From Candidatus Poribacteria bacterium (GTDB taxonomy: Bacteria; Poribacteria; WGA-4E; PCPOR2b): a stretch of 64,000 bases of DNA. Below the pieces are notes generated by a model, which made no database searches, was not told where the DNA came from, and saw only the letters and a list, made by a program, of their open reading frames with translations. A program made the translations under genes and the position numbers. The stretch lies in assembly GCA_965218095.1 (NCBI GenBank), contig OZ244587.1:4576001-4640000 (forward strand), written 5' to 3'. Below are positions 310 through 8,295 of the stretch, piece after piece (position 1 is the first letter of the stretch; every line of letters starts with the position of its first letter).

Positions 310-1626
310 TTATGGAATAATCACAGACTGTTTGGCGGACGCACGTTGAATTAGAAATCGGTAAATTTTATCATTCCGCAGCGTGTCCCGAAACTCCTCT
401 AAACGATTGTTCGCCTTGAGCAGGCTCGCGTATTTTTGAGGGTCTTGATTTTGCTGCTCTGCAATGAGCCGAATTTCTATATCTAACTCATCATCAGTGA
501 CTCTGATATTCTCACGTTCAGCGATGGCATCAAAGATCCATATCTGTTTCGTTTGCTTGATTGCATCTTCACGCAATTCCGCCGGCAAACTTTTCATATC
601 TATTCCCGCTTGCTCAGGAGTTTTTCCTTCACGTCTTAATTGTTGCTGAATATTTTGAATGGTTTGCTGCACATGCTGATCGACAATCGACTCGGGAATC
701 TCAATCGCCGTTTTTTCGATTAACTGTTGAAGGATCTCTTCGCGCTGGCGCTGACGGCGGATTTCCTTCTGTTCCTCGACGAGGTTATTCCAAATTGCGC
801 CATAGAGCTGATCATAATTTTCGTATTCCAAATCTTTTGCGAATTCATCATCAAGGGGCGGAAGCTGTTTCTCCGTAATCACATGTAGCATCACGTTGAA
901 TACAGCATGCTTGCCTGCAAGCTCAGGGTTTTCGTGATTCTGATTGAAGTCCACCTCAACTTGCCTGCTTTCCTCAACACGCATACCAATTAACTCGGCT
1001 TCAATCTCCGGTAAGAGCATCCCTTTTCCAACGTCGATATCTGCATCTTCCTTGCGCCCATCCGTAATTGGTTTGCCGTCCACAAGACATTCCCAGTCAA
1101 TCCTCACTGAGTCGCTGTCCTGGACAGGTCGATCCACCTCAAGTGGAATGTATGTCGCATGTTGTTCCTGCAACCTGCGGATGTACGTCTCCACTTCCTC
1201 ACGTGGGACATTCGGAGGAGATTTATCAATAACTAAATCTTCGTATTCCGGGAGGACAAATTCAGGCTTGACATCAATAGTCGCTTCAAACGCAAGGGGC
1301 TGATCCGCCTCAATTTCCATCTGGTTCATGGAGGGCGAAATCTCCAGATTACCAAGAGGAATCAGTCGCTCAGAAATCAAAGCCTGTTCGTAAGCGGGTG
1401 GGACGAGATTTTGGATGGATTCAGCTTTGATGTGTTCTGCAAATCGCGCTTTAAGGATGCCAGAAGGAACTCTGCCCTTCCGAAAGCCGGGAACTGAGAC
1501 TTTTGTTCGCACAGCCTGACAATTGCGCTCAAGCTCTTCATTGACTTCTTCAGCGGAGATTTCAATACGCAAGCGTACACGACTGTTTCCCAGCTTTCCA
1601 ACTTCAACCTTCAAGTAGACCTCCAA
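310..1626 (-). CDS. tig: Trigger factor (true start may be slightly downstream)
   Basis: VPGFRKGRVP ribosome-binding motif, FKBP-like middle domain, tig-clpP synteny. Confidence 0.95.
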   Translation of the reverse strand: MEVYLKVEVGKLGNSRVRLRIEISAEEVNEELERNCQAVRTKVSVPGFRKGRVPSGILKARFAEHIKAESIQNLVPPAYEQALISERLIPLGNLEISPSMNQMEIEADQPLAFEATIDVKPEFVLPEYEDLVIDKSPPNVPREEVETYIRRLQEQHATYIPLEVDRPVQDSDSVRIDWECLVDGKPITDGRKEDADIDVGKGMLLPEIEAELIGMRVEESRQVEVDFNQNHENPELAGKHAVFNVMLHVITEKQLPPLDDEFAKDLEYENYDQLYGAIWNNLVEEQKEIRRQRQREEILQQLIEKTAIEIPESIVDQHVQQTIQNIQQQLRREGKTPEQAGIDMKSLPAELREDAIKQTKQIWIFDAIAERENIRVTDDELDIEIRLIAEQQNQDPQKYASLLKANNRLEEFRDTLRNDKIYRFLIQRASAKQSVIIP

Positions 1627-1646
1627 ATTATCTCAGAAAAGGCATT

Positions 1647-1733
1647 TGGTGGGCGAGGAGGGACTTGAACCCTCACGGGGAGAACCCCAATAGATCCTAA
1701 ATCTATCTTGTCTACCAATTCCAACACCCGCCC
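1647..1733 (-). tRNA. tRNA-Leu(TAG)
   Basis: Cloverleaf with ATAGA-TT TAG GA-TCTAT anticodon arm, long variable arm, encoded CCA. Confidence 0.93.
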
Positions 1734-1742
1734 ACATAAAAA

Positions 1743-1819
1743 TGGTGCGCCGTGAAGGAATTGAACCTTCAACCGCCTGATTAAGAGTCAGATGCTCTGC
1801 CTGGTTGAGCTAACGGCGC
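1743..1819 (-). tRNA. tRNA-Lys(CTT)
   Basis: GCGCCGTTAGCTCA...CTGACT CTT AATCAG...TTCAA...CACCA. Confidence 0.93.
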
Positions 1820-1829
1820 AGAAGGAAAG

Positions 1830-1903
1830 CGCGTCCGGAGGGACTCGAACCCCCAACTTATAGGACTGAAGTCTATCGCTCTATCCAATTGAACTACGGA
1901 CGC
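1830..1903 (-). tRNA. Arg-type tRNA body with TCA anticodon (opal suppressor-like, or degenerate tRNA-Arg(TCG))
   Basis: GCGTCCGTAGTTCAATTGGATAGAGC...ATAGA-CT TCA GT-CCTAT...GGTTCGAGT; intact acceptor, D and T arms; A31-C39 mismatch. Confidence 0.75.
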
Positions 1904-1981
1904 ATTTCGTAACATTTAAGATTGAATATTGAGGATTGAAAGAGAACACAGTCCATATTCAATAATGCTGTAGACCAATGA

Positions 1982-2057
<76 letters not shown>

Positions 2058-2063
2058 AAGAAA

Positions 2064-2139
2064 GGGGTGGATGATGGGATTTGAACCCACGACCACTTAA
2101 TCCACAGTCAAGCGCTCTACCGACTGAGCTACATCCACC
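2064..2139 (-). tRNA. tRNA-His(GTG)
   Basis: G-1/C73 pattern; TTGACT GTG GATTAA anticodon arm. Confidence 0.92.
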
Positions 2140-2149
2140 ATAAACGAAT

Positions 2150-2226
2150 TGGCACGCCCGGCAGGATTCGAACCTGCGACCTACTGATTAGAAGTCAGTT
2201 GCTCTATCCAACTGAGCTACGGGCGC
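2150..2226 (-). tRNA. tRNA-Arg(TCT)
   Basis: GCGCCCGTAGCTCAGTTGGATAGAGC...ACTGACT TCT AATCAGT...GCCA. Confidence 0.94.
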
Positions 2227-2247
2227 AAACAAAAGGCAATCAGAGAA

Positions 2248-2326
2248 TCAGAGCGAGAAAAATCGAACCGCCGACCTTTCTGATCTCCTAGATCGGAACG
2301 CGCTAACCGGGCTGCGCTACGCCCTG
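2248..2326 (-). pseudogene. tRNA-Pro-like pseudo-tRNA (AGG loop, extended anticodon stem, broken T stem)
   Basis: 5' half nearly identical to tRNA-Pro(TGG); TTCCGAT-CTAGGAG-ATCAGAA arm; T stem GGCGG/TTTCT pairs poorly. Confidence 0.75.
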
Positions 2327-2362
2327 TGGATGTTTTGCCTCTTACTGCCCAAAAGCCCGGAA

Positions 2363-2392
2363 AATATACCACATGAGTATAGGCAGTTGCAA
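2363..2392 (-). promoter_or_regulatory. Putative sigma70 promoter of the tRNA-tig-clpP operon
   Basis: TTGCAA-N18-TATATT with extended TG on the minus strand. Confidence 0.45.
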
Positions 2393-2824
2393 GTCAAAAT
2401 TCAGATTGAGTAAAGAGAGAAGGAAATTGGAAATCAGATATTTGTCTGGCGGTTTGGGGGATTGTCTGCTAAAATAATGATGTGTATCAAAAGAATCACC
2501 CATCATGAAGAAAGACTTGGTAGACCCGACGACTTTTTCCCGGATTTTCAAGTTCAGTTGGAAATTGTTAGAAATGACGCACTGAATCCAATGAAATCGC
2601 TACAGGCATGGGCATATTGGAGACGGGAGTATGAGTCGGAAGTAACTGTTCATGTGATCGCGCAAACTGATAGTTTGCGTTACAAGCATCTGTCAGATTG
2701 CGCGTATTTCACGTTCTGCTTCATTTACGACCTGAACGGTTACAGTCGGAATAATAGAATGCGCCCACGCCCTGAATCAATTACAAAGTTGTCGCCTCAA
2801 CCTGTGTGCTAAAGTCGTCAAAGT

Positions 2825-3244
2825 CTGAATTTCCCACATAGCTTCCACATCAATTTCGGTCGCTGGCGCTCCACAAATGTCGCATGGCAATTGAGGCATC
2901 GTGTTACGCGCTAAAATCGGATTTTCTCTCGCTGGACTCCCTGACGTTCAGCAAATACTTGTCCTTCAAGGTTGGTCGTTGAACCAAAATCGTACTCATA
3001 TTCAAACTTATCTTTGACGCCGAATACCGTTTTTAAGGGAACATTCATGGATTTTGATTCGATGCCCCAAAAATCATCCTCCATGTCGGAAGCTGAATAT
3101 CTGACGCTGTTAATCGTAAACTCGCTGAGATGCTCACAACATTCAAGCCAAATCCTTCTCAAAAAATGATCGAGATCAGAAAGTGTCGCTGTGGATTTCG
3201 CTTCAAGGTGCAGCCAGAACGGCTTATAACTCCAAATTTTCAGA
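2825..3244 (-). pseudogene. pRiA4b ORF-3 / IS1096 TnpR-like protein fragment
   Basis: LSDLDHFLRRIWLECCEHLSEF and YEYDFGSTT motifs; frameshift near 2911 (continues ARNTMPQLPCDICG); 5' end replaced by intron sequence. Confidence 0.7.
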
Positions 3245-3325
3245 GTAAGCATAGGTTGATTCCTTGCGGAATTTTCCCTGCTTCTAAACCGTGCGTGCGA
3301 CTTTCACCGCACACGGCTTGCCCAG
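3245..3325 (-). ncRNA. Group II intron 3' remnant (domains V-VI)
   Basis: AAGCCGTGTGCGGTGAAAGTCGCACGCACGGTTT (3319-3286) matches the 34-nt domain V; followed by a DVI-like stem ending ...CCTATGCTTAC. Confidence 0.85.
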
Positions 3326-4257
3326 TCATAAGTGGCGATTAAATTGAAAATCCATGGGTTTTCCGTTAAAGTAGAGGTAATCCAAACCATAATACCTCAA
3401 AGGAGAAACCAAAGGAGAAACCCATGGACATCCAAATTGCAACCATTTTCTATCTCTGTGACAAGCTCTTAGAAGCACTCAACTCAAAACCACACCCACA
3501 AACGCAGATGTCTGATGCCGAAGTGATGACCACCGGCATCGTCGCTGCGTTGTTCTTCGGGGCAAACTTGCAAACCACTTGTGACTTTCTAAAGACTCAT
3601 GGCTATATACCCAAGATGCTTTCAAAAAGTCGATTAAACCGATGTTCACCACATTGTTCAAAATCTTGGGACGAAGCTATGTGCAACTTAATCAACAGAA
3701 AATCTATGCACTGGATACCATACCAATTGCTGTTTGTTCCGCATTCGTCGGTCAAAAATCTATACCGATAAGGCATATCGAGGCTATCAAGCGTCCAAAC
3801 GTCGGTATTTCTATGGCTTGAAAGTTCATCTGCTAGTGACTGCGAGTCGACACCCTGTTGAATTTTTTGTGACCCCAGCCAGTACAGGGGACGTTGAAGG
3901 GTTACAGTGGTTTGACTTCGACTTGCCACCGGGCTATGGTGACAAAGCATACAATAATTATGAGATAGAAGATATTGTTACATCAGTCGGAGTCGAATTA
4001 AAGCCAGTACGCAAGAAGAATTCCAAGCGGCTGTATCCACCATGGGAGACCTACTTGGCTAATTACCATCGTAAGTCTGTTGAGACGGCTGGCAGTTTGA
4101 TTAACAAACTGCTTTCACGTTCAATCCATGCAGTAACGCGACACGGATTTGAATTGAAAGTGGTCTTGTTTGTATTGGCTAGCAGTATCAATCAGCTCTG
4201 AGTTCACTCACATATTCAGTTCACTCACATATTCGATGAATAGGTCGCAACTTGGGT
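3326..4257 (+). mobile_element. IS982-family element with frameshifted transposase (3424..4201)
   Basis: MSDAEVMT, RYFYGLKVHL, YGDKAY, RKSVETAGS motifs; right end GCAACTTGGGT; left end similar (AAGTGGCGA), boundary approximate. Confidence 0.85.
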
Positions 4258-4996: not shown

Positions 4997-5947
4997 ATGT
5001 CCTTTGCAGTGACTAACACAACGGGATACTTGACAGAGGAAGCCATCGCATATCTCGAAATGAACGGATGCCGGATAACCAACTGCCAGTTCGATCAGTT
5101 GACCGAAGAAGCATTTTGCGAGGAAATCCGTGGCATAGACGCGGTCATCGCCAGCGGTGAGCAGTATACTGAAAAAGTCTTTCAGGCAGCAGATAAATTG
5201 AAGATCGTGGCGCGAACAGGGGCGGGTTATGAGCGCGTGGACATCGAAGCGGCAGCAAAACATGGCATCTGGGTCACAACGACCCCGGGTGCGACAAGCC
5301 ATGCCGTGTCAGATTTCACCCTTGGCCTGATGCTGAGTCTGTTAAGAAATATCCCGGCGATGGCACAGGAAATGAAGGATGGTCAGTGGAACCAGTTCGC
5401 TGGGAAGGAACTGGCGAGTTTGACCGTAGGAATCGTTGGGGCCGGTTCCATCGGGCGGCAGGTCATCAAAAGGGCAACCGCTTTTGGCGCCAAAGTCCTG
5501 GCCTACGACATTCAACCGGACGACGAATTTGCCGATCAGTGGAATGTCCAATACCTTCCGCTGGATGAACTGATGGCTCAATCTGACATTGTTAGCCTCC
5601 ACGTTTCATTCAATGAGGAAACCCGGGGACTGATAGACCAGCGACGATTGAAGTTGATGAGGAAGGGAGCCTATCTGATAAACACCAGCAGACCCGCCGT
5701 TGTGGACAAGGAAGCCCTTATAAGAGTGCTGAAAGCGAAAGAGATTGCAGGGGCGGCAATAGATGTTCACGCGCCTGATCCTTGTCCGCCGGATGATCCG
5801 CTCGTTCAACTCGATAATGTCATTGCCACACCATGGACGGCATATAAAACGGAGGAGACGATAGCGCGGATGTGCATTATGGCAGCCACTGATGTGGTAA
5901 CGGTTTTGCATGGCGGCGCGCCACAGTTTCCGGTGAATAAGCTGTAG
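4997..5947 (+). CDS. D-isomer-specific 2-hydroxyacid dehydrogenase (phosphoglycerate dehydrogenase-like)
   Basis: VARTGAGYERVD, GIVGAGSIG Rossmann motif, LINTSR, AAIDV; RBS AAGGAGG. Confidence 0.9.
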   Translation: MSFAVTNTTGYLTEEAIAYLEMNGCRITNCQFDQLTEEAFCEEIRGIDAVIASGEQYTEKVFQAADKLKIVARTGAGYERVDIEAAAKHGIWVTTTPGATSHAVSDFTLGLMLSLLRNIPAMAQEMKDGQWNQFAGKELASLTVGIVGAGSIGRQVIKRATAFGAKVLAYDIQPDDEFADQWNVQYLPLDELMAQSDIVSLHVSFNEETRGLIDQRRLKLMRKGAYLINTSRPAVVDKEALIRVLKAKEIAGAAIDVHAPDPCPPDDPLVQLDNVIATPWTAYKTEETIARMCIMAATDVVTVLHGGAPQFPVNKL

Positions 5948-6000
5948 GATAGCTGAAGACGTAGTGGCCTATTTCTTAAACGCGCTTATAAGGTTTAGGC

Positions 6001-6029
6001 TTGCAAGTTTTGTGTAAATTTGATACAAT
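6001..6029 (+). promoter_or_regulatory. sigma70 promoter of the IS1595 transposase (at left IR)
   Basis: TTGCAA-N17-TACAAT. Confidence 0.6.
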
Positions 6030-6068
6030 ATAGGCATCAAACCCTTATGAATAAAGGAGTTGAGATGA

Positions 6069-6950
6069 ATGAACTTGTTTGATGCTGTAGAACGATTTTC
6101 TGACCAAGAGAGTTGTATTAAACACTTAGAAACTATCCGCTGGGGTGGCAAACCTGAGTGTCCATATTGCGAAAGTAAAAAGGTTGCACCGAAGAATGAA
6201 GCTAGCATAATTGGTCGTTGGAATTGCCATACTTGTAAGTCAAGTTTCAATGTGTTACAGGGAACGATATTTCAAGGAACACAGATTCCACTTCAGAAGT
6301 GGTTTATGGCTATCCTGTTAATGAACGATGCGAAGAAAAGCCTATCAAGTTGTCAAATGGCTCGTCATTTGGACTTAACGCAACCCTCAGCTTGGTTCAT
6401 GATGAAACGAATCAGGTCTGAGATGGGTAGAAAGGGCAAGGTTTTACTGAGAGGAATTATTGAATGCGATGAAACCTACGTGGGCGGTAAGCCCCGACGA
6501 CGAAAAGACAAGGACGGGAACTTGCCTCCACCGAGCAAGCGAGGTAGAGGCACGAAGAAAACGCCCGTTATCGGTGCTGTTGAACGGGCTGGGAATGTTG
6601 TGGCGCGTGTGGCTACGAGTTTGAGTCGTAAGGGCGTTTTGGGGTTCATCAAAGGCGTTATTGAGAAGCCGAAGGATTCAGTTCTAATGACAGATGAGTT
6701 CTCATCGTATGAGGCGGTTGATGGGCTCATGCCTCACCATGTCATCAGACACAAGAACTGGCAGTACGTGGACGGTAATACCCACACAAACACGATTGAA
6801 GGGTTCTGGTCGCTGGTGAAACGTGCGTTTCATGGTACACATCACCACTACAAGCATGTTTCGCTCTACATCGCTGAGGCGTGTTACAAGTACAACAACC
6901 GGAAGAACCGGAACATCTTCAAGAAGTTTATCAGGGAATGCTTTGTGTAG
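6069..6950 (+). CDS. IS1595-family (ISXO2-like) DDE transposase
   Basis: CPYC..CHTC zinc ribbon, ECDETYVGG, MTDE, NTIEGFWS. Confidence 0.93.
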   Translation: MNLFDAVERFSDQESCIKHLETIRWGGKPECPYCESKKVAPKNEASIIGRWNCHTCKSSFNVLQGTIFQGTQIPLQKWFMAILLMNDAKKSLSSCQMARHLDLTQPSAWFMMKRIRSEMGRKGKVLLRGIIECDETYVGGKPRRRKDKDGNLPPPSKRGRGTKKTPVIGAVERAGNVVARVATSLSRKGVLGFIKGVIEKPKDSVLMTDEFSSYEAVDGLMPHHVIRHKNWQYVDGNTHTNTIEGFWSLVKRAFHGTHHHYKHVSLYIAEACYKYNNRKNRNIFKKFIRECFV

Positions 6951-6988
6951 GGTGGGAAAACCTCTGGAGACTCCATAGAAGGATTAGA

Positions 6989-7183
6989 TTACACTATTTC
7001 CAACCTTTTGAAAATGGTTGTAATTAGTGTGTAGTCATTTTTAAGTAACTGAATTGCAACTCTTAAATCTTCTACGGTTGCAGTAGAGGTAAATAACCTC
7101 TCTTCAATTCGGTGGGTTTTATCAGCATGTTTTTGTAGATGTTCTTTAACACGTTGAATATCCACCTTCCTTTGTGATGACAT
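6989..7183 (-). CDS. Small helical hypothetical passenger protein (64 aa)
   Basis: Strong RBS AAAGGAGG upstream of ATG; flanked by 14-bp IR. Confidence 0.6.
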   Translation of the reverse strand: MSSQRKVDIQRVKEHLQKHADKTHRIEERLFTSTATVEDLRVAIQLLKNDYTLITTIFKRLEIV

Positions 7184-7230
7184 AACATCTGCCTCCTTTC
7201 TGAGTCATATTTTCAGAGGTTTTCCCATAA

Positions 7231-7354
7231 GGGAGTGTCCGGTGGGAGCCGGACACTCTAGCAACAAAATATCAGGGAGTGCTTTGTGTAGCACCCCCTG
7301 ATATTGCCTAAGAGTTATTGCTTAGGCGTAGCCGTATAAGGACTGCTATACGGC
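7231..7354. repeat. Array of four consecutive hairpins inside IS1595
   Basis: GAGTGTCCGG/CCGGACACTC; AATATCAGGG.GTGCT/AGCAC.CCCTGATATT; GCCTAAG/CTTAGGC; GCCGTATA/TATACGGC. Confidence 0.85.
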
Positions 7355-7372
7355 GTTTGATTACCCTTACGT

Positions 7373-7552
7373 TTAGCGATTTTGAGTACGATAAACGTAA
7401 AGGTTTTGCGTATTTTTATAAACACGATAATCCCTCCTTTCATTGGAATAAGTCGTGATGCAGAGGGTGTTATCAGCAGTTGTCCGTATATGTGGACTTA
7501 CAAGCGTGCCGTCTTTACGCCTGTAAGACTTGATGTATTTGATGCGTGGCAT
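7373..7552 (-). CDS. Small basic passenger protein (59 aa; not in ORF track)
   Basis: Manual translation MPRIKYIKSYRRKDGTLVSPHIRTTADN...; RBS AAAGGAG; Y-R-x-D-G-T-x-V-x-x-H-x-R motif. Confidence 0.6.
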   Translation of the reverse strand: MPRIKYIKSYRRKDGTLVSPHIRTTADNTLCITTYSNERRDYRVYKNTQNLYVYRTQNR

Positions 7553-7617
7553 GGGGGGTCTCCTTTGCCATGTTGTGGCGGTGGGGGTGCTATAACACCC
7601 CCTCGCCTGTTTTATGT

Positions 7618-8058
7618 CTATCTCATGTGCAATCTTCTAGCAACATTTCGGAGGGTTGTTTCGGTTTGCCCAAATCGTTCCTCCATTTGGGCATAACGCC
7701 CCTCTATACTATCTATTGACTTGATGACTGCTACATGAGTTGCAAGGGTAGTTGTCATGTACCTGTCCATTCTCGTTACTGACTGTTGAAAAGAATCAAG
7801 TTTCTTGTCAATATCTTCAACAGGTACGGTTTTCTTCGCAGTTGCATCTCTAGTTTTCAGATTCTCTGCGATGTTGGTAAGCTCTACCCTTCTTAAATTG
7901 ACGACTTCTTCTTTCAGTTGTTTTGCTTCATCTCTGAAGTCTATGAAGGACTTTCTGATACTATACAAATCGTCACTACTGGGAATGTGTTTCCAAATGA
8001 ACTTTCCAGCAGCAATGATAATGAGTATATCCGCTACTACACTAAGAAAATCACTCAT
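7618..8058 (-). CDS. Passenger protein with N-terminal TM helix and coiled coil
   Basis: FLSVVADILIIIAAGKFIW followed by heptad-rich helix; RBS AAAGGA. Confidence 0.65.
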   Translation of the reverse strand: MSDFLSVVADILIIIAAGKFIWKHIPSSDDLYSIRKSFIDFRDEAKQLKEEVVNLRRVELTNIAENLKTRDATAKKTVPVEDIDKKLDSFQQSVTRMDRYMTTTLATHVAVIKSIDSIEGRYAQMEERFGQTETTLRNVARRLHMR

Positions 8059-8142
8059 TGGGGTGTCCTTTACTTTGGCGAGGAAAGGTAAAACAAGCCA
8101 ACGATTTAATAAACTTCAGAATCACAGGCTTGTAACACCCCA

Positions 8143-8171
8143 ATAATATCACATATTCAAAGAATCTGCAA
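8143..8171 (-). promoter_or_regulatory. Inward-facing sigma70 promoter at IS1595 right IR, driving the passenger genes
   Basis: TTGCAG-N17-TATTAT on the minus strand. Confidence 0.55.
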
Positions 8172-8295
8172 GCCAATTATTTATAAATGCGTTTCTTAAA
8201 TTCGTGTCGGGTTTGGAGCACCCCAGACATCAATCGAATTTAAGAAGTGAATCAGTAGACGGTAGCTCATTCACACACAGATAGGAGGACGTTCA

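Follow-up and report, generated by a model that had tools for sequence, protein, structure and literature searches.

A 64,000-nt stretch of the genome of a sponge-symbiotic Candidatus Poribacteria bacterium (contig OZ244587.1; this whole stretch is hereafter called the window) contains a 2211-bp mobile element at positions 5981–8191. The element carries an IS1595-family transposase gene and, on the opposite strand, three small passenger open reading frames (ORFs; orf146, orf59, and orf64). It is probably a recently active transporter insertion sequence (IS) of the IS1595 family with modular passengers. Elements of this kind are already known; what is unusual is a well-defined conserved expression scaffold, together with the modularity of the cargo and a recurrent junction signature at the transposase stop codon.

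We searched the 6.35-Mb genome to which the window belongs at the DNA level and found nine full-length copies, all bounded exactly as window positions 5981–8191. Seven copies were identical and two had a 1-nt difference. Alignment of the flanks of the nine copies placed the shared borders at CGCGCTTATAAGG... at one end and ...TTTATAAATGCG at the other. The original prediction had set the ends at 5966 and 8206; each border lies 15 nt further inside, and the outer part of the inverted repeat proposed at that time is made up of duplicated target and a portion of a host palindrome (arms, 8193–8204 with 8235–8246). The direct repeats flanking the copies were exact 8-mers in six cases, 9-mers in two, and imperfect in one, and the target sites of all nine were AT-rich. 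The duplication of the window copy is the 9-mer TTTCTTAAA at 5972–5980 and 8192–8200; the last 8 nt of the left one are the usual 8-bp repeat, and the right one was assigned from the flank alignment and an empty-site contig. The left terminal inverted repeat (IRL; 5981–6007, plus strand) and the right terminal inverted repeat (IRR; 8165–8191, minus strand), both starting at the shared copy boundaries, match at 18 of 27 positions, and GGCTTGCA is present in both.

The empty-site contig came from one sponge metatranscriptome run (X9) and joins position 5971 to position 8192 with a 9-nt overlap, indicating that the insertion at the window locus is polymorphic in nature. The 1.24 kb downstream of the transposase gene is the same in all nine copies and lies inside the target duplications. 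What transposes is the complete 2211-bp unit with its cargo, which enters AT-rich sites and duplicates 8–9 bp of the target; the earlier claim that the cargo is part of the element holds, since the cargo is inside the moving unit and common to all nine copies. As for the insertion sites themselves, the window copy entered the left arm of the host palindrome (TTCTTAAATTCG, 30 nt, CGAATTTAAGAA; 8193–8246), which is located ca. 25 nt downstream of a 2-hydroxyacid dehydrogenase gene (4997–5947). The copies at C1:5923005 and C1:6069770 are inside long open frames (387 and 526 codons, respectively, when the empty sites were rebuilt), and the genes there are probably disrupted.

The transposase gene (6069–6950, plus strand) encodes 293 amino acids and was identified by Pfam and NCBIfam. 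Its product has an N-terminal Zn ribbon (PF12760, 3.6e-8, 33.7 bits against a cut-off of 25.4) and a DDE_Tnp_IS1595 catalytic domain (PF12762, 1.6e-34, residues 127–276), and it scored 181.9 bits with NCBIfam NF033547 (cut-off, 75). The key residues are CPYC31, CHTC53, D134, D209, E244, and K251. The target duplication of the IS1595 family is 8 bp, and 8-bp duplications were found at the predicted ends of 31 of the 77 loci of relatives scanned, a few of which were judged unreliable. The DDE domain, the Zn ribbon, the inverted repeats, and the 8–9 bp duplications together bear out the assignment to IS1595. Matches above the curated cut-offs of Pfam and NCBIfam were restricted to the transposase; with these libraries, no other recombinase and no dedicated gene-capture enzyme was found in the element.

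Transposase relatives were present in 24 of 41 related genomes, and the nearest were those of Candidatus Poribacteria. The boundaries of the relatives (whose loci carry L numbers below) were defined by inverted repeats and the 8-bp duplication, which were available for a subset. About 25 elements with confirmed boundaries were 1637–5139 bp in length. Nearly all bounded relatives therefore carry cargo, and the homologous elements do not end right after the transposase. Without identical copies and two elements whose boundaries were suspect, there were 17 different cargo regions. The cargo of the relatives, as read from the sequence without a family-library check, includes N4/N6 DNA methyltransferases, a 938-aa restriction-modification-like protein, and many small membrane ORFs. 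When cargo content and junctions were compared among homologues, as had been proposed with the original prediction, the cargo differed, and the leader that precedes it and a hairpin over the transposase stop were conserved.

The closest outside relative, L063, has a transposase 79% identical to that of the window. At the DNA level, the window and L063 were 74.8% identical in the transposase gene and 88.7% identical in the right end and leader, and the DNA lying between these two parts showed no detectable similarity. The homology ends at most 3 nt from the ATG of the first cargo ORF. Two further loci belong to the genome of the window itself. L021 (C1:5095000–5099600, 1568–3333) is a degenerate sister with a frameshifted transposase (209-aa and 74-aa pieces) and four plus-strand cargo ORFs, the first ATG of which overlaps the transposase stop (TAATG). 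L022 (C1:2550800–2553400, about 600–1320) is a fragment without a transposase. The first ORF behind the leader is unrelated across these four elements: a 146-aa protein with one membrane helix and three long helices in the window, a 125-aa protein with a signal peptide in L063, a 67-aa multi-helix membrane peptide in L021, and an 82-aa membrane protein in L022. Furthermore, one Latescibacterota genome has at least eight variants whose transposase genes are 85–90% identical; the similarity stops at the stop codon, and the cargo is different or mosaic. We infer from these sequence comparisons that the passenger region is modular, in which the ends, promoters, leader, and terminator would be kept and the ORF modules exchanged.

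A predicted transposase promoter is located at 6001–6029 on the plus strand (TTGCAA at 6001–6006, 17 nt, and TACAAT at 6024–6029), and a predicted cargo promoter at 8143–8171 on the minus strand (TTGCAG at 8171–8166, 17 nt, and TATTAT at 8148–8143). Their −35 hexamers are inside IRL and IRR, respectively, and the right −10 hexamer has a TG upstream (TG-n-TATTAT). The TTGCA(A/G) in both repeats, proposed as the −35 of inward-facing promoters, is thus present with the described −10 hexamers and 17-nt spacing at 6001–6029 and 8171–8143. The left promoter would drive the transposase gene, and the right one would drive a three-ORF passenger operon on the opposite strand. A consensus promoter scan of the element listed the left site only (one site, against a mean of 4.4 in shuffled sequences). 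A −35 inside the repeat, in the same layout, was also seen on the left side of ten relatives and, in the wider clade, on both sides; L063 and L022 share the geometry of the cargo promoter. GGCTTGA(C) occurs at the ends of relatives. The right repeat has TTGAC, a −35, in all five elements with convergent adjoining cargo (L043, L066, L070, L073, and L083) and TTAA in all three with only co-directional methyltransferase cargo (L079, L081, and L117). This split by cargo direction, from a small sample (five versus three) of related elements, fits a functional promoter in the right repeat.

Behind the cargo promoter, a structured leader (8055–8146, minus strand) has nested stems that cover the ribosome site and AUG of orf146. 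In its outer stem, 8135–8146 pairs with 8055–8066, and the AUG is inside the pairing. The inner stem ACAAGCC/GGCTTGT pairs 8093–8099 with 8127–8133, and a third stem, 8084–8088 with 8067–8071, pairs the ribosome site. The leader fold had a folding free energy (dG) of −33.3 kcal/mol with z of −3.7 to −4.1, and zero or one of 200 shuffled sequences folded as well; hence the nested stems noted at first (8058–8143) were substantiated by the fold, with z of about −4. The −10 hexamer at 8148–8143 predicts a start near 8136, inside the arm 8146–8135, and this 5′ arm of the main stem begins 1 nt past the hexamer. RNA from the predicted start, without the full 5′ arm, gave dG of −18.4 kcal/mol and z of −1.3, compared with z of −4.1 with the arm. 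Transcripts of the element itself would begin inside or after the 5′ arm (near 8136) and stay translatable, and read-through RNA from host DNA would include the arm, so that the ribosome site and AUG would be locked. From this model of the fold, we infer that the leader gates the translation of the first cargo ORF. Such a lock would insulate cargo expression from the insertion context, like the fold-back inhibition of the IS10 transposase. In IS10 and IS50, a sequence at the element end pairs with the translation start, and only transcripts started outside are locked. The leader would follow the same logic, as its 5′ arm would lock only read-through RNA if the predicted start is used. However, a passenger gene would be protected here, not the transposase.

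The leader sequence was present in three of 176 Poribacteria genomes. A covariance model of the leader, run over 76 loci, returned the training sequences and one degenerate solo remnant (L145), and nothing else. L145, in another Poribacteria genome (G019), is a remnant of the leader and right end at 1422–1545. The gene adjoining it encodes a 155-aa protein that looks peroxiredoxin-like by eye, without a family search.

The other end of the cargo operon is marked by a predicted terminator at 7268–7305 (minus strand), which consists of a 16-bp hairpin and a U-tract and was a terminator-like site in the scan. This is the ancestral hairpin over the transposase stop. In L063, L044, L045, and L051, it is directly at the stop; the transposase stop codon lies in the hairpin loop, and the left arm is the 3′ end of the coding sequence. 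In eight sequences of the stop hairpin, 82% of cells were paired, compared with 36–47% when the partners were slid. Compensatory changes were found in four of 15 pairs (e.g., CAGGG/CCCTG versus CCGAG/CTCGG), and the covariation score was reached by nine of 500 shuffles. The U-tract after the hairpin and the terminator score suggest that two transcription units converge there. In the ancestral layout, the convergent units would end at a shared terminator that overlaps the transposase stop.

The spacers of the cargo region are also strongly structured. A hairpin between orf146 and orf59 (7577–7607, minus strand) had dG of −22.9 kcal/mol and z of −4.3, and the spacer folds compared with shuffles gave z of −6.2 for 7184–7310 and −8.9 for 6940–7310. 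A GC-rich hairpin upstream of orf64 (7233–7258, minus strand), read from the sequence and the fold, is homologous to one between two unrelated cargo ORFs in L021 and L022; outside the nine copies, its motif was found at the L022 locus only. We considered and rejected the possibility that these hairpins are genome-wide repeats, since the hairpin motifs were confined to the IS copies and two degenerate relatives. In addition, the repeat search and the minimum-energy fold revealed a perfect 14-nt inverted repeat bracketing orf64 (left arm, 6953–6966; right arm, 7214–7227). The loop of this stem holds orf64 whole with its ribosome site, and in the predicted fold the ribosome site is paired with the 3′ end of orf64. 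We estimate that ca. 0.01 perfect 14-nt repeats would be expected by chance in 2.4 kb. Within the genome, the 14-nt repeat was found in IS copies only, and an independent miniature transposon formed by the orf64 module was rejected because this terminal repeat occurs nowhere else in the genome. A search against Rfam gave one match, far below the gathering score.

The three cargo ORFs are on the minus strand. orf146 (7618–8058; 146 aa) has an N-terminal membrane helix at about residues 2–24 and then three long helices, and belongs to no family. orf59 (7373–7552) is basic, and its residues 1–29 are from a 61-aa protein family. orf64 (6989–7183; 64 aa), also without a family, is in a module between the transposase stop and the terminator. 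Each has a ribosome site, AAAGGA(G), 6–8 nt ahead of its ATG, and the spacers are far more stable than shuffles; therefore, the description of three small ORFs with ribosome sites separated by hairpins was sustained. They also end head-on at the transposase as described, the stop of orf64 being 38 nt from that of the transposase gene.

Relatives of orf146 among 5.8 billion protein clusters were limited to two, P0001 (99% identity) and P0002 (67% identity). Between orf146 and the 67% relative, the frame is kept, with gaps in whole residues only. orf64 likewise had two relative clusters, one of which (P0017) is 89% identical and also 64 aa in length. Because the relatives of orf146 and orf64 keep the frame and length, the cargo ORFs look coding rather than pieces of a non-coding RNA. 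The idea of a long structured RNA with ORFs in its loops, raised in the original prediction, therefore applies in part: it is literal for orf64, which sits in the loop of the 14-nt stem, but the ORFs look coding. No orf146 match was found when it was queried against 175 other Poribacteria genomes.

The case of orf59 departs from the rest. Residues 1–29 of orf59 were 93% identical to P0004 (61 aa), and the sequences then differ. A distant variant, L045, carries a 62% identical full-length homologue of the 61-aa protein and no other cargo. In the RNA libraries, contigs of all four runs skip 7303–7471 (169 nt) and have 110 other letters instead; these contigs, which represent a variant B of the element, comprise 6879–7302, the 110 letters, and then 7472 to 7892–7975 depending on the run, with sharp borders. 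The replaced segment holds the hairpins at 7306–7327 and 7331–7354 and the second half of orf59. The product of variant B is P0004, the intact 61-aa protein. P0004 and the 99% copy of orf146 share the longest-contig size, which fits the presence of both on one contig. Judging from these sequences, orf59 is likely what recombination left of a genuine basic protein of 61 aa with an N-terminal RKDGT-type motif. The proposed cassette reading thus does not extend to orf59, a probable remnant of the 61-aa gene and not an intact cassette. The N-terminal motif of orf59 can be written as V-[KR]-G-Y-x-[RK]-K-D-G-T-Y-V-x-P-[HY]-x-R. It is repeated three to five times in longer proteins of 211–553 aa, and three proteins with such repeats (P0005, P0006, and P0011) all have a hydrophobic, signal-like start. 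None of six proteins with this motif (P0004 and five longer ones) reached the cut-off in a Pfam search.

Searches of the three window ORFs with Pfam, PADLOC, and NCBIfam gave nothing above the cut-offs, nor did Pfam and PADLOC searches of seven cargo ORFs of L063 and L021. In a feature search, orf146 drew weak phage-like leads only (score, 0.90), and the recognition value did not reach the reliable level. For the same protein, AlphaFold gave a model with a mean confidence (pLDDT) of 69.5, for which Foldseek found no match with E below 0.1 in PDB and viral libraries. Our best guess is that the cargo encodes small proteins of the envelope or membrane from which the element or its host profits, for instance in exclusion, defence, or addiction. 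More specifically, though we consider this unlikely, the cargo could act as a toxin-antitoxin module for addiction or exclusion, in which a small membrane protein (orf146 here, other membrane ORFs in relatives) would be curbed by RNA structure, with a hok-like lock on orf64, and which would stabilise the element or protect the host against phage. The first leader ORF is membrane-anchored or exported at five of six leader or right-end positions (window, L063, L021, L022a, and L043, but not L022b, the second leader position of L022), and the predicted fold sequesters the ribosome site and AUG of orf146. The 14-bp stem around orf64 pairs its ribosome site with the 3′ end, and the feature search that gave the score of 0.90 placed orf146 near phage clusters of membrane-helix and coiled-coil proteins. 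However, the recognition value of that search is below the level of reliable scores, PADLOC, Pfam, and NCBIfam gave no match, and no structural match had E below 0.1. orf146 (146 aa, one membrane helix) and orf64 (19-residue hydropathy maximum of 0.8) are unlike short hydrophobic toxins, neither an antitoxin nor, from RNA-library contigs that carry no strand, an antisense RNA was identified, and a toxin gene in nine copies would come at a high cost. As for the likeness to hok-type type I toxins, in whose mRNAs long-range 5′–3′ pairing closes the mRNA and hides the ribosome site, the predicted stem around orf64 would also hide the ribosome site, whereas orf64 is not a short hydrophobic peptide and has no known antisense RNA.

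The orf64 module (6951–7269) lies between the transposase stop and the terminator hairpin, and it is followed by a second copy of the last 22 nt of the transposase gene. This copy (7270–7291, plus strand) is identical to 6929–6950 at 21 of 22 positions and forms the left arm of the terminator hairpin in the window. The same arrangement, cargo at the stop codon followed by a 22–48 nt copy of the transposase 3′ end, was found in five of 64 distinct elements: the window element, L021 of the same genome, L043, L048/L065, and L052. In the controls, no such remnant was observed in 1107 tests with foreign 24-mers or at any of seven internal gene offsets (0 of 64 at each). The transposase 3′ ends differ greatly between the remnant-bearing elements, so the events were independent. 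The L043 remnant has the Arg codon AGG, which is paired with the hairpin arm, and the resident gene has CGA; it follows that this remnant came from another variant. The ends of RNA-library contigs suggest further junctions 38–39 nt before the transposase stop, and the contigs also show variants with the stop directly before the hairpin arm. Nested insertion of one IS into another was rejected as the origin of the remnants, because no sequence like the right inverted repeat precedes any of them. Site-specific (dif-like or lox-like) recombination at the hairpin was also rejected, as a right arm is missing from the first junction and the remnants are of unequal length. A likeness between orf64 and the L043 module ORF was dropped, since it comprised two short segments in swapped order (E of 0.001 and 0.064, each for a single comparison).

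In the mechanism we propose, co-resident IS variants would swap ORF modules through recombination or template switching, and the breakpoints would fall in the scaffold, at the ATG of the first ORF, at the terminator, and at the transposase stop. orf64 would be one such module, placed behind the stop along with 22 nt copied from the transposase 3′ end. This exchange is possibly helped by stalling at the strong hairpins, which would account for the remnants being always short. A dedicated capture process, which would make the element an integrase-free platform with the stop hairpin as the capture site and the right promoter and leader as the expression slot, seems unlikely to us. The agent in that case would be the transposase, a host enzyme, or polymerase stalling and template switching at the hairpin, for example when the element is repaired or replicated; each event would regenerate the left arm of the hairpin and leave behind the 22–48 nt copy of the transposase 3′ end. 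What speaks for it is the recurrence in five independent elements of cargo right at the stop with remnants of 22–48 nt and none longer, the further contig junctions 38–39 nt before the stop, and the homology to relatives that breaks exactly at the ATG behind the conserved leader. Duplications point the same way: in L022, two leader modules enclose an additional pair of convergent ORFs (65 aa and 62 aa), and in L021 an 83-aa ORF occurs twice, flanking a 293-aa ORF. (The inner leader copy of L022 is without the outermost right inverted repeat, roughly the last 30–35 nt.) On the other hand, the element encodes no second recombinase (Pfam, NCBIfam), the left border of the remnant varies over 22–48 nt, unlike in site-specific recombination, and the first junction has no right-arm-like sequence. 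The L043 remnant was derived from another variant, the feature is present in only five of 64 elements, and long direct repeats are lost by recombination, so that the short remnants could be survivors. Moreover, the nine copies here are invariant. The notion of a cassette-accumulating element in the original prediction accordingly stands as far as the cargo differs among relatives, but not in view of the nine invariant copies and the absence of another recombinase.

It is very improbable that the right half is non-coding, with the ORFs as chance frames in a structured RNA or in a transposase-binding DNA that regulates transposition, even though the structure over 6940–7310 is extreme (z of −8.9), none of the three ORFs has a protein family, orf59 is a remnant, and the core motif of the right repeat is repeated in the leader, because orf146 keeps its frame against the 67% relative with whole-residue gaps only, orf64 has the same length as its 89% identical relative, a 62% identical member of the 61-aa family exists in the distant L045, all three ORFs have strong, well-spaced ribosome sites, and clear genes (DNA methyltransferases, by reading) occupy the same position in relatives.

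Several observations weigh against a transporter IS with modular, expressed passengers. Family, feature, and structure searches gave no function for any cargo ORF. The depth in the RNA libraries was ca. 3 on the flanks and 16–42 on the element, as nine DNA copies would give, and contig depth therefore cannot show cargo expression; the contigs show neither strand nor transcript starts. The right −35 hexamer matches the consensus at three of six positions, which is under the scan threshold and is why the scan did not list the right promoter. The argument from the start site in the leader depends on the predicted −10 hexamer alone. The inner leader stem is invariant in all four available sequences and gives no covariation support. 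Its sequence matches the right-repeat core at 13 of 15 positions, so a DNA site bound by protein, instead of an RNA stem, may lie here. orf64 is downstream of the terminator without a recognisable promoter of its own. Finally, all five remnants are shorter than ca. 50 nt, which random recombination or deletion alone does not explain.

The original prediction had regarded the element as the best candidate for an undescribed system, but IS1595 elements with passengers have already been described under the name transporter IS, as in a passage of PMC3129680 that cites Siguier, Gagnevin, and Chandler 2009 (Res Microbiol 160:232); a figure legend of PMC9330008 also bears on these elements. The window element shares with them the DDE transposase with a Zn ribbon, the inverted repeats, the 8-bp duplication, the internal passengers, and a length of about 1.6–5 kb. 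It differs in the conserved scaffold with swapped ORFs and in the 3′-end remnant after stop-adjoining cargo. Transporter IS subgroups in ISfinder include ISNwi1+ and ISPna2+. In the literature searched, to which the Siguier 2009 paper itself did not belong, no description of the scaffold conservation or the 3′-end remnants was found. Among modular systems, the mobile insertion cassettes (MICs) of IS231, which appear by title in the reference list of PMC3129680, are likewise modular IS-derived units with unrelated genes between IS ends. However, MICs have no transposase and are mobilised in trans, whereas the window element is autonomous. As with integron cassettes, promoterless ORF modules stand behind a fixed promoter, hairpins mark the module borders, and the cargo varies between platforms. 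In contrast to integrons, the element has no tyrosine integrase (Pfam, NCBIfam), the platform itself is a DDE transposon, and the module borders are duplicated scaffold pieces of variable length. No attI or attC site was seen; Rfam gave nothing above the threshold, and no attC-specific search was made.

Insertion sequences are commonly regarded as transposase genes and little else; this one would add a second promoter, a leader that gates translation, and a shared terminator, and its relatives reuse this scaffold for other small genes. If the exchange exceeds occasional recombination, the element would be a simple, integrase-free means of shuffling and spreading small membrane proteins. The cargo ORFs are orphans with one or two relative clusters each among the 5.8 billion, and automatic annotation would miss or misread them.

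Outside Candidatus Poribacteria, transposases with 50–62% identity were found in metagenome-assembled genomes of Latescibacterota, Chloroflexota/Caldilineaceae, Nitrosomonadaceae, Alphaproteobacteria, and Pedosphaera. The spread of these relatives over phyla may reflect horizontal traffic between unrelated bacteria. The loci concerned (L064–L120) cover at least six phyla or classes by label, and many are from the genome-assembly series of the Poribacteria relatives. The plasmid collection had no similar DNA, its transposase relatives were all below 60% identity (best, 41%), and the metagenome scan gave nothing closer than 52%.

Two minor observations concern the range of forms in this family. 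In the Latescibacterota loci L068, L070, and L072, a 1535-bp cargo segment of one variant recurs at 99.6–99.9% identity in inverted orientation. It sits 1.5–2.5 kb downstream of two variants that do not have it inside their borders, and represents either a derivative without a transposase or a partial copy lying alongside. A related Poribacteria genome (G029) had 49 transposase matches, most of which were near-identical 287-aa copies, and three copies compared shared a common 1250-bp element with almost no cargo. The family thus has bare, highly expanded members beside the cargo carriers.

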